DNA from: Escherichia coli 042
GTDB lineage: Bacteria; Pseudomonadota; Gammaproteobacteria; Enterobacterales; Enterobacteriaceae
Strand: one strand, 5' to 3'
NCBI RefSeq assembly: GCF_000027125.1
Contig: NC_017626.1
DNA length: 64,000 nucleotides
Shown: positions 6,187 to 59,525 of the stretch, in pieces
Position numbering within the stretch: position 1 is the first letter of the stretch
Layout of the letters: each line of letters starts with the position of its first letter
Notes under the pieces: model-generated
The model's database searches: none
Told to the model about the DNA's origin: nothing
What the model saw: only the letters and a program-made list of their open reading frames with translations
Made by a program: the position numbers and the translations under genes

Positions 6187-7656
6187 ATGAATACAACAAC
6201 ACCCATGGGGATGCTGCAGCAACCTCGCCCATTTTTCATGATCTTTTTTGTCGAGTTATGGGAGCGATTCGGCTACTACGGCGTGCAGGGCGTACTGGCG
6301 GTTTTCTTCGTTAAGCAGCTTGGATTCTCGCAAGAACAGGCTTTTGTCACTTTTGGTGCTTTTGCTGCGCTGGTCTATGGCCTCATTTCCATTGGCGGCT
6401 ATGTCGGCGACCACCTGCTGGGGACCAAACGCACCATTGTTCTCGGAGCACTTGTGCTGGCGATTGGCTACTTCATGACCGGCATGTCGCTACTTAAGCC
6501 TGACCTGATTTTCATCGCCCTGGGGACTATCGCTGTCGGTAACGGCCTGTTTAAAGCTAACCCAGCCAGCTTGCTTTCGAAGTGCTATCCACCGAAAGAT
6601 CCGCGGCTTGATGGCGCATTCACCCTGTTCTATATGTCGATCAACATCGGCTCGTTGATAGCGTTATCGCTGGCCCCTGTGATCGCTGATAGATTCGGCT
6701 ATTCAGTCACCTACAACCTGTGCGGTGCGGGATTAATTATCGCGCTATTGGTTTACATCGCCTGTCGCGGAATGGTGAAAGACATTGGTTCTGACCCCGA
6801 CTTCCGGCCGATGAGCTTCAGCAAACTGTTGTACGTGTTACTTGGCAGCGTGGTGATGATCTTCGTCTGTGCATGGCTGATGCACAACGTAGAAGTCGCC
6901 AATCTGGTGCTGATTGTTCTCTCCATCGTCGTCACCATCATTTTCTTTCGTCAGGCATTCAAGCTGGATAAAACCGGGCGCAATAAAATGTTTGTCGCCT
7001 TTGTCCTGATGCTCGAAGCGGTGGTGTTTTACATTCTCTACGCCCAGATGCCAACGTCACTGAACTTCTTTGCCATCAACAACGTGCATCATGAAATTCT
7101 CGGCTTTTCCATCAACCCGGTCAGCTTCCAGGCGCTTAACCCTTTCTGGGTGGTACTCGCCAGTCCAATACTGGCAGGCATTTACACGCATCTGGGTAAC
7201 AAAGGCAAAGACCTCTCGATGCCGATGAAATTTACTCTCGGCATGTTTATGTGCTCGCTGGGCTTTCTTACAGCCGCCGCTGCGGGAATGTGGTTTGCTG
7301 ATGCACAAGGACTGACATCGCCGTGGTTTATTGTGCTGGTTTACTTATTCCAGAGCCTGGGTGAACTGTTTATTAGCGCCCTTGGCCTGGCGATGATTGC
7401 TGCCCTGGTGCCGCAGCATTTGATGGGCTTTATTCTCGGGATGTGGTTCCTGACGCAGGCTGCCGCGTTCTTGCTGGGCGGCTATGTGGCAACATTTACC
7501 GCAGTACCAGACAACATTACCGATCCGCTTGAGACGTTGCCCGTCTATACCAACGTGTTTGGTAAGATTGGCCTGGTTACGCTGGGCGTTGCGGTGGTGA
7601 TGCTGCTGATGGTGCCGTGGCTGAAACGAATGATTGCGACGCCCGAAAGCCATTAA
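6187..7656 (+). CDS. dtpB: Proton-dependent di/tripeptide permease DtpB (POT family, 489 aa)
   Basis: POT/PTR2 N-terminal region [22 protein letters not shown]; about 12-14 TM segments. Confidence 0.9.
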
Positions 7657-7669
7657 TTATTCTTGCAGA

Positions 7670-7706
7670 AAGCAGGGTAGCGATAACGCTACCCTGCTTT
7701 ACTTTT
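7670..7706. terminator. Probable bidirectional terminator between dtpB and rsmJ
   Basis: Hairpin aagcagggtagcgataacgctaccctgctt followed by tactttt; lies between two convergent genes. Confidence 0.55.
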
Positions 7707-8457
7707 ACACCGGCGTTCCGGCATAAATATCAAAGCGATGCCCTTTGGTCACTACCGCGTTTGGCGTGGCGACATTCGCCAGCGGCGGCGCGTAGTCCGG
7801 GCGCTTTACCACCACGCGTTTGGTCGCCAGCAAGCGTGCAGGCTCCAGCAATCCATCAGCGTCGAGATCCGGCCCCACCAGCGACTGGAACACGCGCATC
7901 TCTTTTTTCACCAGCGCGCTTTTCTGCTTATGCGGGAACATCGGGTCGAGATAGACCACCTGCGGGCGTGGGGTAATATCGGTCAGCGCCGTCAGGCTGG
8001 AGGCGTGAATTAACTGCAACCGCTCCTGCAACCAGCCGCCGATTTCCGCATCCGCATAACCACGCGCCAGGCCGTCGTCGAGCAATGCAGCAACCACCGG
8101 ATTACGCTCCAGCATCCGCACGCGGCAGCCGACTGAAGCCAGCACAAAGGCATCGCGCCCCAGCCCTGCGGTGGCGTCCACCACGTCCGGGAGATAATCG
8201 CCTTTAATGCCCACCGCTTTTGCCACCGCCTCACCGCGACCACCGCCGAATTTGCGACGGTGCGCCATCGCTCCGCCAACAAAATCAACAAAGATGCCAC
8301 CAAGCTTCGGCTCATCACGCTTGCGCAGTTCCAGATGCTCCGGTGTTAACACCAGCGCCATCAGGTTGTCTTCATCATGTTCCAGCCCCCAGCGAGCCGC
8401 CAGAACAGATAAGGCACCGTCTCCGGTGCCTGTTTCATCAATTAAGCAGATTTTCAC
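7705..8457 (-). CDS. rsmJ: 16S rRNA m2G1516 methyltransferase RsmJ (250 aa, GTG start)
   Basis: SAM-methyltransferase fold; the 285-aa ORF is trimmed to an internal GTG to give the K-12 length; gene order matches. Confidence 0.75.
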
Positions 8458-10709: not shown

Positions 10710-11552
10710 ATGCTCAGTTATCGCCACAGCTTTCACGCTGGCAACCACGCCGACGTCCTTAAACATACCGTTCAGAGCCTGATCATCGAGTCGCTGAAAG
10801 AGAAAGATAAACCGTTTCTCTATCTCGATACCCACGCAGGGGCCGGGCGTTATCAGTTAGGCAGCGAACATGCCGAGCGTACCGGCGAATATCTCGAAGG
10901 CATCGCCCGTATCTGGCAGCAAGACGATTTGCCTGCAGAGCTGGAGGCGTACATCAATGTGGTAAAACACTTTAACCGTAGCGGTCAGTTGCGTTACTAC
11001 CCCGGTTCACCGTTGATTGCCCGTCAGTTACTGCGTGAACAGGACAGCCTGCAACTAACCGAACTGCACCCGAGCGATTACCCGTTGCTACGTTCTGAAT
11101 TTCAGAAAGACAGCCGTGCGCGCGTGGAAAAAGCCGACGGTTTCCAGCAGCTTAAGGCCAAGCTGCCGCCGGTTTCCCGCCGTGGTTTAATCCTTATCGA
11201 CCCGCCGTATGAAATGAAAACCGACTATCAGGCGGTGGTCAGCGGGATAGCAGAAGGTTACAAACGTTTCGCCACTGGCACTTACGCACTGTGGTATCCG
11301 GTGGTGCTGCGCCAGCAAATTAAGCGCATGATCCACGACCTGGAAGCGACCGGCATTCGCAAAATTCTGCAAATTGAACTGGCGGTACTGCCAGACAGCG
11401 ATCGCCGTGGCATGACCGCTTCCGGCATGATTGTGATTAATCCGCCGTGGAAGCTGGAACAGCAGATGAATAACGTGCTGCCGTGGCTGCACAGCAAACT
11501 GGTTCCGGCTGGTACCGGGCACGCCACCGTAAGCTGGATCGTGCCGGAGTAA
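10710..11552 (+). CDS. rlmJ: 23S rRNA m6A2030 methyltransferase RlmJ (280 aa)
   Basis: Start set at MLSYRHSFHAGNHADVLKH inside the 297-aa ORF; catalytic DPPY motif present (LILIDPPYEMK). Confidence 0.8.
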   Translation: MLSYRHSFHAGNHADVLKHTVQSLIIESLKEKDKPFLYLDTHAGAGRYQLGSEHAERTGEYLEGIARIWQQDDLPAELEAYINVVKHFNRSGQLRYYPGSPLIARQLLREQDSLQLTELHPSDYPLLRSEFQKDSRARVEKADGFQQLKAKLPPVSRRGLILIDPPYEMKTDYQAVVSGIAEGYKRFATGTYALWYPVVLRQQIKRMIHDLEATGIRKILQIELAVLPDSDRRGMTASGMIVINPPWKLEQQMNNVLPWLHSKLVPAGTGHATVSWIVPE

Positions 11553-11623
11553 TTGCAGCCATTGCTGGCACCTATTACGTCTCGCGCTACAATCGCGGTA
11601 ATCAACGATAAGGACACTCTGTC

Positions 11624-56192: not shown

Positions 56193-57122
56193 ATGTCCAA
56201 AAAGATTGCCGTGATTGGCGAATGCATGATTGAGCTTTCCGAGAAAGGCGCGGACGTTAAGCGCGGTTTCGGCGGCGATACCCTGAACACCTCCGTCTAT
56301 ATCGCCCGTCAGGTCGATCCTGCGGCATTAACCGTTCATTACGTAACGGCGCTGGGAACGGACAGTTTTAGCCAGCAAATGCTGGACGCCTGGCACGGCG
56401 AGAACGTTGATACTTCCCTGACCCAACGGATGGAAAACCGTCTTCCGGGCCTTTACTACATTGAAACCGACAGCACCGGCGAACGTACGTTCTACTACTG
56501 GCGTAACGAAGCCGCCGCCAAATTCTGGCTGGAGAGCGAGCAGTCTGCGGCGATTTGCGAAGAGCTGGCGAATTTCGATTATCTCTACCTGAGCGGGATT
56601 AGCCTGGCGATCTTAAGCCCGACCAGCCGCGAGAAACTGCTTTCTTTGTTGCGCGAATGCCGCGCCAACGGCGGAAAAGTAATTTTCGACAATAACTATC
56701 GTCCGCGCCTGTGGGCCAGCAAAGAAGAGACACAGCAGGTGTACCAGCAAATGCTGGAATGCACGGATATCGCCTTCCTGACGCTGGACGACGAAGACGC
56801 GCTATGGGGTCAACAGCCGGTGGAAGACGTCATTGCGCGCACCCATAACGCGGGCGTGAAAGAAGTGGTGGTGAAACGCGGGGCGGATTCTTGCCTGGTG
56901 TCCATTGCTGGCGAAGGGTTAGTGGATGTTCCGGCGGTGAAACTGCCGAAAGAAAAAGTGATCGATACCACCGCAGCTGGCGACTCTTTCAGTGCCGGTT
57001 ATCTGGCGGTACGTTTGACGGGCGGCAGTGCGGAAAACGCGGCGAAACGCGGGCACCTGACCGCAAGTACCGTTATTCAGTATCGCGGCGCGATTATCCC
57101 GCGTGAGGCAATGCCGGAATAA
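56193..57122 (+). CDS. kdgK: 2-dehydro-3-deoxygluconokinase KdgK (309 aa)
   Basis: pfkB-family sugar kinase with C-terminal TAAGDSFSAGY motif; start set at MSKKIAVIGECMIEL. Confidence 0.9.
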   Translation: MSKKIAVIGECMIELSEKGADVKRGFGGDTLNTSVYIARQVDPAALTVHYVTALGTDSFSQQMLDAWHGENVDTSLTQRMENRLPGLYYIETDSTGERTFYYWRNEAAAKFWLESEQSAAICEELANFDYLYLSGISLAILSPTSREKLLSLLRECRANGGKVIFDNNYRPRLWASKEETQQVYQQMLECTDIAFLTLDDEDALWGQQPVEDVIARTHNAGVKEVVVKRGADSCLVSIAGEGLVDVPAVKLPKEKVIDTTAAGDSFSAGYLAVRLTGGSAENAAKRGHLTASTVIQYRGAIIPREAMPE

Positions 57123-57678
57123 TGGTTTTTGACGGAGAACGGGTAGATATTCGTTCTCCGTTAATCGCCTTGCAGGGGTGAACCGAACTATGCTGATAAT
57201 TTGAAGTAAACTGCTGACGCATATCATTCAAACTACGCGTAAATTTAAGCGGGTTCTCACCTTTAATTTCGACCGTGACGAAGACATTCCCATTGTTGTT
57301 AAAGAAGCCAAAATAATAGTCATGTTGATGACGACGATTGGTTTTAAATTGACGAAATGATAAATAGCAGCGGTTATCGTAGGTAATTAAAAAATCATTT
57401 TCTCCGTATTCGTTTATCATCTTATTTTTCAGGCTACCATCGAAGAGCACTGCATACTTATCTTTGTCAGCAAATAATTCGGCATCAGTTTCTCGGTTGA
57501 TCGTGTTGACGCTGATACCGAATTCTATTTTTACCTTGTCTTTATCGATATTATTTCTTGTGCTGACATACATATTATTGGCATCCCAGAGTAAGAGAAA
57601 GTTTTTGTTGCAGGAATAAAGACCTGTTAAGCAAAGAATGACTGTTAGCAAGAATAGTATGCGTTTTTTGTTACGCAT
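57094..57678 (-). CDS. Hypothetical secreted or lipoprotein-like protein (194 aa), islet gene 5
   Basis: N-terminal signal peptide MRNKKRILFLLTVILCLTGLYSC with RBS caggag; Asn/Lys/Asp-rich and AT-rich; the 3' end reads through the kdgK terminator and 29 bp into kdgK. Confidence 0.55.
   Translation of the reverse strand: MRNKKRILFLLTVILCLTGLYSCNKNFLLLWDANNMYVSTRNNIDKDKVKIEFGISVNTINRETDAELFADKDKYAVLFDGSLKNKMINEYGENDFLITYDNRCYLSFRQFKTNRRHQHDYYFGFFNNNGNVFVTVEIKGENPLKFTRSLNDMRQQFTSNYQHSSVHPCKAINGERISTRSPSKTIIPALPHAG
57132..57161 (+). terminator. Hairpin after kdgK (candidate terminator)
   Basis: acggagaacg ggtagatatt cgttctccgt, 10 nt after the kdgK stop. Confidence 0.5.
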
Positions 57679-57739
57679 TTATACTCCTGAAAATGCGTTG
57701 AGGTCGCAAATATAATTAAATAGTCTGACATAAATAAAA

Positions 57740-58060
57740 TTAATTCCCTATCAATAATACATCTGCGACTTTTCTTGGTCCTTCGTAGATCTCAAATGCC
57801 TCGTACTTAGTCATCCATTGTTCAGGGGCGGTATCGAAAAGGAACTGAACGCACCCCATTGAAACGATACGTCCATCGGTTACATTAGGTTTTTCCAATT
57901 CAAAAACAACGCTCCATGCATTATTTTGCCAGTCAGTTTTCTCCTCTGGAAACCTGGAGACGGGATAATATCTACCGATAGGAGGTGCGCTCCTTCTGCC
58001 ACCTTCATTTTCTGTAAGCCAAACAACCTTTACACGATACATATGTTTCCATTCATTCAT
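57740..58060 (-). CDS. Hypothetical protein resembling EF-Tu domain III (106 aa), islet gene 4
   Basis: VVWLTENEGGRRSAPPIGRYYP and C-terminal FEIYEGPRKVADVLL align with EF-Tu domain III ([36 protein letters not shown]); starts 3 nt after the gene 3 stop. Confidence 0.6.
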   Translation of the reverse strand: MNEWKHMYRVKVVWLTENEGGRRSAPPIGRYYPVSRFPEEKTDWQNNAWSVVFELEKPNVTDGRIVSMGCVQFLFDTAPEQWMTKYEAFEIYEGPRKVADVLLIGN

Positions 58061-58063
58061 TAA

Positions 58064-58543
58064 TTAAATTAAGTGTGAATTATATAATATTGCCACCCCA
58101 TGCGATCTTTCCCATTTTAGTCCATCAACTAATAATGATAGAAAAGAATACTGGAAGCTTATATTTTTAATCACTTCTATTTTTTCATCATCTAATGACA
58201 AGATTACCCACCCCCCGTAATTTTTGCTAACCAGGTTGTTAATAAATTTAATTATAGGATTGGTTGAAATATCCTTTCCTTTATTCACAGCCATTTCCAG
58301 GTCATCGACTAAAGAACCATTGAAGTTGTAAACATGATATTCATTAAAGTCTATGTGCTCATCTAAAGGTGGGCCATAAGTAATCGGTAGATTGCATCTC
58401 TGCAAAAGATGATGATTACACCAGGCGTATACCGGAGGGTCGCGATGAAAGGTTTCCCCACCCCAGTGAACCATAACCTCTTGTAGATCTAGTTCCTCTG
58501 GAGCGAATCGTGTAGGGAGTAAAATATCCAAGTGAAAATCCAT
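58064..58543 (-). CDS. Hypothetical protein (159 aa), islet gene 3
   Basis: AT-rich ORF with no motif I recognise; translationally coupled to gene 4. Confidence 0.55.
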   Translation of the reverse strand: MDFHLDILLPTRFAPEELDLQEVMVHWGGETFHRDPPVYAWCNHHLLQRCNLPITYGPPLDEHIDFNEYHVYNFNGSLVDDLEMAVNKGKDISTNPIIKFINNLVSKNYGGWVILSLDDEKIEVIKNISFQYSFLSLLVDGLKWERSHGVAILYNSHLI

Positions 58544-58642
58544 AGCCTATCCTAAATTTGGCACCCATAACATAAACTGTGTAAGAATCAACGACTGCCC
58601 CCCCAAAAATGGGAAAATTTACTTATTATGCAAAGTTACTTA

Positions 58643-58897
58643 TTAAGAAGCCCATTCCTCATTTTTTGGCAAATAGCCCTTTCGCCAACAGGTCAGAATC
58701 TTAAAACTCGCTCGCAAATAAAATTTATTAGCCGAATCGTTTTTAACCATTCTGACTAATGTCATCTCACCCGTTCTTTTATCTATCACGAACTCGCCGT
58801 AATCAGATCTACAATAGTCAGAAGATGTAGGTCCAAATTCATATTTTACTACTTTATCAGTTTCTTCAATTTTCAATATTTCTATATGATAGGCCAT
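58643..58897 (-). CDS. Hypothetical small protein (84 aa), islet gene 2
   Basis: Start codon overlaps the stop of gene 1 by one nucleotide (TAATG); no recognised motif. Confidence 0.5.
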   Translation of the reverse strand: MAYHIEILKIEETDKVVKYEFGPTSSDYCRSDYGEFVIDKRTGEMTLVRMVKNDSANKFYLRASFKILTCWRKGYLPKNEEWAS

Positions 58898-59322
58898 TAT
58901 TTAACACCATCTATTGCCTGGCATCGTATACAGCTAAAACCAGTAGCTAAAATCTCAACATAACTATCATAACCTGCTATAATATAATGTTTTAACTTTA
59001 ACCGTTTTTTAGGGTCATATAATCTCTCTTTTTCTTCAAGCGGTACAGAATTCATTACTTGATATATACCGGAGTCCAGATTTTCACCATCAACCTTCTT
59101 AATAACAATATTGTTATAGTTGGCTTCATGAAAATTGACGGTAGCACACTTAACTTCAGCAACTGTAGTGAAGACCAGTTCAATTTGAACATAATCTTTC
59201 TCTGTTGATATTAACTCCAGAGCATCTACTTTAATGTTGACGCCATCAGACTCTGTATATGTTAAAGATAAATAAGTTGTGGAAATCCTGAATCCAATCG
59301 ATTGTGATTTTAACACAAGCAT
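58897..59322 (-). CDS. Hypothetical protein (141 aa), islet gene 1
   Basis: Start at the second ATG (MLVLKSQSIG), which has AAGGAG 7 nt upstream; C-terminal CIRC (CxxC); AT-rich. Confidence 0.55.
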   Translation of the reverse strand: MLVLKSQSIGFRISTTYLSLTYTESDGVNIKVDALELISTEKDYVQIELVFTTVAEVKCATVNFHEANYNNIVIKKVDGENLDSGIYQVMNSVPLEEKERLYDPKKRLKLKHYIIAGYDSYVEILATGFSCIRCQAIDGVK

Positions 59323-59525
59323 AAACTCACTCCTTCCAGTAGGCACAGGTATAATTTATTCAGCTAATAAATAATTAAACCCACTCTACGGTAAGTTTAT
59401 TTTAATAATGAATGGTTATCTGCGCGCTACCGCCGTGCCCGGAAAAATATCTGCGGTTATATCACGGTAACTAATTTATTACCGTTAATCCCGGCAGCGC
59501 AGAAGAAACGCTGCCGGGTTATTTA

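Follow-up and report, generated by a model that had tools for sequence, protein, structure and literature searches.

A kdgK/yhjJ islet of Escherichia coli 042 as a likely array of orphan immunity genes against Rhs toxins

We analyzed an AT-rich islet (positions 57123 to 59525) that lies between the genes kdgK and yhjJ in a stretch of 64,000 nucleotides (nt) of Escherichia coli 042 DNA (contig NC_017626.1), hereafter referred to as the window. The islet was defined by its G+C content, by alignment with the corresponding junction of strain K-12, and by its occurrence in complete genomes, and it carries five genes on the minus strand, termed A to E. We consider it likely that this segment, which occupies a variable junction of the core genome, is an array of orphan immunity genes without toxins, directed against polymorphic toxins of the Rhs type that are delivered by a secretion system of type VI (T6SS). 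The evidence for this reading is as follows. (i) Genes A, B, and D belong to three families whose homologs in other bacteria lie directly behind three different Rhs C-terminal tips, termed here toxins Z, Y, and X, respectively, at distances of 3 to 29 nt. (ii) The window contains neither an Rhs gene nor an Rhs core fragment, and no sequence of toxin X, Y, or Z was found in it. (iii) A DNA search of 5,426 complete E. coli genomes, the set that underlies all genome counts given below, detected none of the parts coding for toxins X and Y, and only the immunity halves of the toxin Y-B and toxin X-D modules had matches there. Since the homologs directly follow Rhs tips and the toxins are absent from the window, with X and Y also undetected in the E. 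coli genomes, we regard A, B, and D as orphan Rhs immunity genes. An earlier note on this DNA had likened the layout of the islet to orphan immunity gene arrays, which holds for these three genes; for C and E, no such homolog was found.

Toxin-immunity families of genes A, B, and D

None of the five islet proteins matched a model in Pfam, NCBIfam, or PADLOC, in agreement with the earlier note, which had assigned no motif to any of them. In PADLOC, there was no match at E values of ≤1, and none was obtained either for variants of E or for the DUF3142 and TPR proteins encoded by larger forms of the islet. The searches of PHROGs returned only matches with E values of ≥0.009, none of which was significant, and sequence searches of the PDB with the islet proteins gave nothing significant. 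Toxin-antitoxin families of Pfam and NCBIfam were not matched, and no enzymatic or nucleotide-binding domain was detected. There was no Rfam family in the region; the two matches recorded (E values of 0.26 to 0.42) concern eukaryotic snoRNA models and are attributed to chance.

Gene B (58643 to 58897, minus strand; 84 amino acids) is a member of the orphan immunity family that has toxin Y as its cognate toxin. In six Salmonella contigs, the B homolog follows, at a distance of 3 nt, an orphan Rhs tip that consists of the motif DPLGL and approximately 128 amino acids corresponding to toxin Y, and these loci are part of arrays with Imm9 and SymE genes. Two further contigs hold toxin Y, which is frameshifted, and a B homolog, so that the distance of 3 nt applies to eight loci. 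Another B homolog was found in a metagenome contig (L014; JGI 3300013000, Ga0157360_1000163) within a very large immunity gene array of more than 20 small genes on the same strand. This array includes two Barstar genes, a Colicin_immun gene, a SUKH gene, and two Cys_rich_CPCC genes, whereas most of its members lack any annotation.

Gene D (57740 to 58042, minus strand; 100 amino acids) represents the family with toxin X as its cognate toxin. The first D homologs were found in Jejubacter, Serratia, Yersinia pseudotuberculosis, Citrobacter, and Kosakonia, and they are located either within arrays of small open reading frames (ORFs) that include SUKH genes or in the orphan zones that follow PAAR-Rhs or VgrG-Rhs loci on their 3' side. 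In Y. pseudotuberculosis, D is found directly 3' of a TriTu gene, behind an Rhs-TreTu gene. Twelve more D-family loci came from a scan in which each species was represented by one genome, and the family spans Enterobacterales, Burkholderia, and Methylobacterium. In nine loci from six genera, the D homolog starts 3 to 29 nt after the stop codon of an Rhs tip. Toxin X-D loci were found in Citrobacter, Affinibrenneria, Yersinia nurmii, Photorhabdus heterorhabditis, P. luminescens, Morganella morganii, and Methylobacterium indicum. In these tips, a conserved domain of approximately 105 amino acids, namely, toxin X, directly follows the DPxGL motif; its consensus is LYRGMS..EY...MEGKWFAESY..WGNKMGHGG..VVQI.VPD...LDGIGPARY. 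In P. luminescens, toxin X forms the tip of a full-length Rhs protein of 1,415 amino acids, with DcrB encoded 5' of Rhs, and in Brenneria there is a remnant truncated by an insertion sequence (IS) element. The islet D protein keeps the family motifs WQNNAWS and FEIYEGP[KR].

Three side observations concern D loci. In Citrobacter (L019 to L021, positions 6471 to 8303), orphan modules are arranged back to back, a TreTu tip with TriTu being followed by a toxin X tip with its D homolog. A third Rhs tip in the same genus (L021, positions 10945 to 11610) is weakly similar to TreTu and has a YVEFDV motif. Furthermore, a 2.8-kb contig of a metagenome-assembled genome labeled "Collinsella sp." (L027; JAIJJM010000440.1) matches the E. 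coli D region with 100% identity and is almost certainly an E. coli contig misbinned into a genome of the Actinomycetota.

Gene A (58897 to 59322, minus strand) encodes 141 amino acids from its ATG, or 149 from an upstream GTG, and belongs to the immunity family with toxin Z as its cognate toxin. This family is broader and crosses phyla. In nine metagenomic loci, the A homolog starts 16 to 23 nt after the third type of Rhs tip, toxin Z, of approximately 148 amino acids; two of these loci contain full-length Rhs genes for proteins of 1,567 amino acids. The metagenome scan for the A family was based on a pattern derived from 9 sequences, an earlier alignment of 44 sequences having been too diverse. 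In one locus, a SUKH gene lies 4 nt further 3' of the A homolog, and in another one the A homolog is located after a VgrG/Toxin-deaminase/immunity locus. The best fold match of A is the immunity protein PIM7, and its AFDB neighbors include an entry named "Immunity protein 50." One sequence with six matched stretches to A (P0095; 1,463 amino acids) is a eukaryotic zinc finger protein with low-complexity repeats and was discarded. A member of the family (P0058; 238 amino acids) combines an A-type domain with a C-terminal extension of approximately 100 amino acids (ISIQEGSRIVGYATI) that by eye resembles an EF-Tu-type barrel. Its comparison with D by hhalign (E value of 0.043, probability of 1%) and a BLASTP search against EF-Tu, which returned no match, did not support a relationship to D, and the extension was not used as evidence.

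In the islet, the three unrelated families are encoded on one strand. Their products are small (141, 84, and 100 amino acids), and direct reading of the sequences revealed no hydrophobic N-terminal signal, so that A, B, and D are predicted to be cytoplasmic. Homologs of A, B, and D occur in arrays with SUKH, Barstar, Colicin_immun, Imm9, Imm43, Imm50, and TriTu genes. In the homolog loci examined, the three were never found together outside Escherichia, which argues for independent immunity modules and not for a multigene machine. In the mechanism we propose, A, B, and D would each bind and block one specific Rhs toxin domain (Z, Y, and X, respectively) injected by competitors, and the islet would protect a cell that makes none of these toxins. 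Tips with toxin X are hosted by Citrobacter, Morganella, Photorhabdus, and Yersinia, and those with toxin Y by Salmonella. Expression, toxin binding, and protection by the E. coli copies are what we infer from the context of these families in other genomes.

The data define three previously unannotated Rhs toxin-immunity pairs (X-D, Y-B, and Z-A), which can be added to annotation resources, and they provide a testable function for five genes annotated as hypothetical in an extraintestinal E. coli lineage that is widespread and to which strain UMN026 belongs. They also indicate that a housekeeping junction distant from all rhs and T6SS loci can serve E. coli as a site for immunity genes.

The product of gene D has the beta-barrel fold of domain 3 of the translation factor EF-Tu, and it retains the EGGR loop. 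It differs from that domain in being a stand-alone protein of 100 amino acids without GTPase domain or domain 2 and in containing the family-specific WQNNAWS insertion. At the sequence level, the similarity of D to EF-Tu is not significant, with a z score of approximately 1.8 in a shuffle test and an hhalign E value of 0.03 (probability of <2%). The Pfam family GTP_EFTU_D3 was not matched by D even at E values of ≤10, and a profile search of the PDB did not return EF-Tu. The Rhs toxin TreTu ADP-ribosylates EF-Tu, and its residues R6, E12, S25, H31, F41, and W68 are essential (PMC9825190). Like TreTu, toxin X is an Rhs tip of approximately 105 amino acids that begins right after DPxGL, and its invariant residues R5, E11, and W43-G44 align with R6, E12, and F41-G of TreTu. 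However, this alignment is itself not significant (hhalign E values of 0.046 and 0.0097, probability of 1 to 4%), TreTu residues H31 and W68 have no match, and toxin X is not matched by the Pfam family TreTu_C. D, with its EF-Tu domain 3 fold, bears no resemblance to TriTu, the immunity protein of TreTu. A scenario in which the D family evolved from EF-Tu domain 3 and neutralizes a TreTu-like, EF-Tu-recognizing toxin X by mimicking its target or cofactor is, in our view, doubtful. Mimicry of the Doc phosphorylation site of EF-Tu is unlikely because this site, T382, aligns with a Lys in D. The known EF-Tu-dependent toxins of contact-dependent inhibition (CDI) systems, which are tRNases, bind domain II and not domain III (PMC5737660, PMC9071432); mimicry by D of the EF-Tu surface used by these toxins was set aside for this reason. 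Since the match between toxin X and TreTu is insignificant and the CDI toxins bind domain II, target mimicry by D is put forward as a hypothesis and not as a finding. If true, it would represent a new route by which immunity proteins arise, and it would implicate EF-Tu as the target of a new family of toxins.

The kdgK/yhjJ junction in Escherichia

The G+C content is 0.32 to 0.42 over positions 57200 to 59450, compared to 0.50 to 0.58 in both flanks. In K-12, kdgK and yhjJ are adjacent and convergent and are separated by a spacer of 95 bp, in place of which the window has an islet of approximately 2.4 kb. The AT-rich islet of five same-strand genes described in the earlier note, and its statement that the two flanking genes are convergent neighbors in K-12, were thus both confirmed. 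In contrast, the islet was not inserted, as that note had put it. Homology to K-12 stops within the last kdgK codons (...MPE here versus ...MPA in K-12) and at the yhjJ stop codon, which indicates that the whole K-12 spacer was replaced and not split by an insertion. The C terminus of KdgK (window positions 57115 to 57122 compared with L003) reads ...EAMPE in the islet strain and ...EAMPA in K-12, and this difference in the last residue places a recombination breakpoint within the final kdgK codons. Transfer of the segment apparently takes place by homologous replacement, in which the kdgK/yhjJ spacer is exchanged. The annotation of the region includes neither an integrase nor a transposase, and there are no flanking direct or inverted repeats beyond chance size. 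An origin from a prophage or mobile element was ruled out by the absence of an integrase, a PHROG match, a tRNA-type target, and flanking repeats.

The product sizes given in the earlier note are correct for A (141 amino acids), B (84), C (159), and E (194), whereas D has 100 and not 106 amino acids. Its start is the Met of MYRVKV, the position at which all family members begin, and RefSeq has chosen the identical start. Of the two translationally coupled pairs proposed earlier, A and B do overlap by 1 base (TAATG), but C and D are 21 nt apart when D takes the start supported by its family, so that only A and B are strictly coupled. Two hairpins were noted. A G+C-rich one (59490 to 59518, minus strand; cccggcagcg-tttcttct-gcgctgccggg, as read directly from the sequence) lies between the yhjJ stop codon and gene A and suggests that the islet is not simply cotranscribed with yhjJ. 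The other one (57129 to 57164; inverted repeat I7), located just 3' of the kdgK stop codon and within the extended 3' end of E, has arms of 13 nt that are 92% complementary and 10 nt apart and is a possible bidirectional terminator. The window is 100% identical to the sequence of E. coli M7424, in which RefSeq annotates the same five genes, all as hypothetical proteins.

The comparison of the junction across E. coli suggested in the earlier note proved informative. A total of 169 of the 5,426 complete genomes (approximately 3%) contain the segment over at least 80% of its length, and the junction is empty in nearly all others. The block of genes A to D was found in 172 genomes, 166 of which are at least 99% identical, gene E in 200 genomes, and a convergent gene pair encoding a DUF3142 protein and a TPR protein of 664 to 680 amino acids in 31 genomes. 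At least four states of the junction can be distinguished in E. coli: (i) an empty junction, in approximately 96% of the genomes; (ii) a 5-gene form (A to E), which is the state in this window; (iii) a 7-gene form (A-B-C-D-E plus TPR protein and DUF3142), in two complete genomes (L016 and L017); and (iv) a 3-gene form (E plus TPR protein and DUF3142), as in SMS-3-5 and KFu014 (L002). The 5-gene islet is a deletion derivative of the larger 7-gene islet. The islet also occurs in Escherichia fergusonii, Escherichia albertii, and the reference strain UMN026 (UniProt B7NEH1 and B7NEH4). Two database records deserve mention: in one genome (H31; NZ_CM144251.1), an IS1A element is inserted within the A-D block, and a 4.9-Mb E. 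coli record retrieved from a plasmid collection (H106; NZ_CP141089.1) is evidently a chromosome.

The islet alleles are mosaic, with protein identities of 84 to 99% depending on the gene, and all five ORFs are intact. Ratios of nonsynonymous to synonymous substitution rates (dN/dS) between alleles range from 0.16 to 0.68 across the five genes and from 0.16 to 0.22 for B. For A, B, E, and one C allele, the nonsynonymous divergence reaches up to approximately 10 times that of kdgK and yhjJ.

Genes C and E and alternative explanations

Gene C (58064 to 58543, minus strand; 159 amino acids) is known from Escherichia only. Its relatives form just four clusters, every one from the islet in this genus; none of the 2,956 ORFs in the retrieved loci is a relative, and there was no match in Pfam, NCBIfam, PADLOC, or the PDB. 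Its ORF is intact in an allele of 89% identity, with a dN/dS of 0.49. A relationship to SUKH was tested, and no link was found. C lacks a DPxGL motif, and none of the Rhs loci contains a relative of it, which rules out an orphan toxin fragment. It may represent a fourth gene for immunity or else a passenger specific to the lineage.

Gene E (57094 to 57678, minus strand; 194 amino acids) encodes a predicted lipoprotein that is not tied to Rhs. Its signal peptide ends in ...LTGLYSC, which agrees with the secreted or lipoprotein-like product announced in the earlier note, and UniProt names the UMN026 protein "Lipoprotein" (B7NEH1). In comparison with alleles of 176 to 177 amino acids, the normal stop codon of E is missing, and the reading frame extends for approximately 20 more codons, through the hairpin and into sequence antisense to the 3' end of kdgK (57094 to 57165), overlapping kdgK by 29 nt. 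The only distant relative found is a homolog with 53% identity in Riemerella anatipestifer that is surrounded by housekeeping genes. It is located between a thioredoxin-family gene and rpmA/rplU (L079; NZ_CP081938.1). This record of approximately 102 kb is typed as a plasmid but carries murA, murB, miaA, and ribosomal protein genes and looks like chromosomal DNA or a chromid.

There is an even chance that E is not an immunity gene but the surviving part of an envelope module that occupies the junction together with the immunity genes and is composed of DUF3142, the lipoprotein-like TPR protein, and E. E is accompanied by DUF3142 and the TPR protein, without A to D, in 29 genomes, among them SMS-3-5 and KFu014, and the 7-gene form unites both gene sets with E. 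Both partner proteins have signal peptide-like N termini, and the Riemerella homolog does not reside in a toxin locus. On the other hand, E persists with A to D and without the envelope partners in approximately 170 genomes. DUF3142 has no assigned function, its structure (PDB 8y6t) being labeled by that name only, and among T6SS immunity proteins, periplasmic lipoproteins are common. E belongs historically with the DUF3142/TPR module, which was lost from the 5-gene form, and is better seen as a neighbor of the immunity array than as a part of it.

Several observations weigh against the islet being an array of orphan Rhs immunity genes. (i) The E. coli proteins share only 35 to 70% identity with the copies that adjoin toxins, and their specificity may therefore have drifted from that of these relatives. 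(ii) Because 166 of the approximately 170 carriers are at least 99% identical, the persistence of the islet may reflect clonal descent rather than selection. (iii) The dN/dS values for A and E are 0.6 to 0.7, with few substitutions. (iv) Upstream of A, a simple consensus scan found no promoter on the minus strand, and silencing is frequent in AT-rich DNA of this type. (v) No homolog of C or E was found 3' of an Rhs tip, and neither has a link to a toxin; the distant relative of E is located among housekeeping genes.

Some of these observations would also fit a decaying remnant, that is, a horizontally acquired segment that is now silent and is inherited clonally without benefit. Such a remnant could account for the near identity of the 166 carriers, for the lack of a predicted promoter upstream of A, for the origin of the window form by deletion from the 7-gene islet, for the read-through of E into the kdgK antisense, and for the IS1 element within the block in H31. 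However, each of the five ORFs has remained intact among alleles whose protein sequences diverge by as much as 16% and which come from three Escherichia species, dN/dS is below 1 for every gene, with the lowest values for B, and the WQNNAWS and FEIYEGP[KR] motifs of D have been kept. We therefore consider a functionless remnant improbable.

The earlier note had also considered toxin-antitoxin modules and a small anti-phage cassette. In the latter, the genes would act jointly as a multigene system. The islet is AT-rich and accessory and occupies a variable junction, which would be compatible with such a cassette, and a Yersinia D homolog is indeed located within an integrase island adjoining restriction-modification, AAA_15, and SIR2/HerA genes. 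This explanation is nevertheless very improbable: PADLOC matched neither the five proteins nor the DUF3142/TPR pair, there was no significant PHROG match and no detectable enzymatic or nucleotide-binding domain, the genes occur independently of each other outside Escherichia, and A, B, and D each have an Rhs toxin tip as their partner instead. Two toxin-antitoxin pairs of type II (A/B and C/D), as the 1-base overlap of A and B, the 21-nt distance between C and D, and the small size of the four products might suggest, are hardly credible, since members of the A family are found in the absence of B and members of the B family in the absence of A, and likewise D and C, the fold of A resembles that of an immunity protein and not that of a toxin, what precedes D at other loci is an Rhs toxin and not a C-like protein, no toxin-antitoxin family was matched in Pfam or NCBIfam, and there is no toxin in the islet.

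Comparison with known immunity systems

An array of orphan Rhs immunity genes is not the undescribed system that the earlier note had anticipated, since orphan Rhs/T6SS immunity genes and islets have been reported previously (PMC10539506, PMC7400221). The closest counterparts are the RhsI orphans, such as SMDB11_2280 of Serratia marcescens Db10 (PMC10539506) and those of the Salmonella Rhs-CT/RhsI systems (PMC3967940, PMC9825190). These are likewise small cytoplasmic proteins with family members right behind an Rhs tip, their toxin is likewise absent, and neutralization is expected to occur by 1:1 binding of the toxin. In Serratia, native expression levels of an orphan Rhs immunity protein are sufficient for protection (PMC10539506), and by analogy A, B, and D would work in the same way. 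The RhsI orphans adjoin the 3' ends of rhs/T6SS loci, whereas the islet genes are alone at kdgK/yhjJ, with no Rhs core fragment nearby. Furthermore, the three families of the islet and their toxins are different ones, for which no Pfam or NCBIfam model was matched.

A putative islet of 14 T6SS/CDI immunity genes has been defined bioinformatically in Salmonella Typhi (PMC7400221). It is also lineage restricted and composed mostly of orphan immunity genes with cognate toxins that are absent from the genome, and it was also recognized through the genomic context of homologs in other bacteria. The kdgK/yhjJ islet is smaller (5 genes, 3 of them assigned), is found at another locus, and consists of other protein families; it adds a lipoprotein and, in larger alleles, the DUF3142/TPR module.

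The acquired interbacterial defense (AID) clusters of Bacteroidales are reportedly mobile and recombinase associated. The kdgK/yhjJ islet differs from them in that no integrase, transposase, or flanking repeats were found there, and it thus does not qualify as a mobile cluster. AID arrays also contain heterogeneous orphan immunity genes, which are directed against the T6SS effectors of other strains (cited in PMC10539506; see PMC12247911). The kind of system described here is hence already known, and the new details are the protein families, the three toxins, the location away from rhs, and the EF-Tu domain 3 fold of D.

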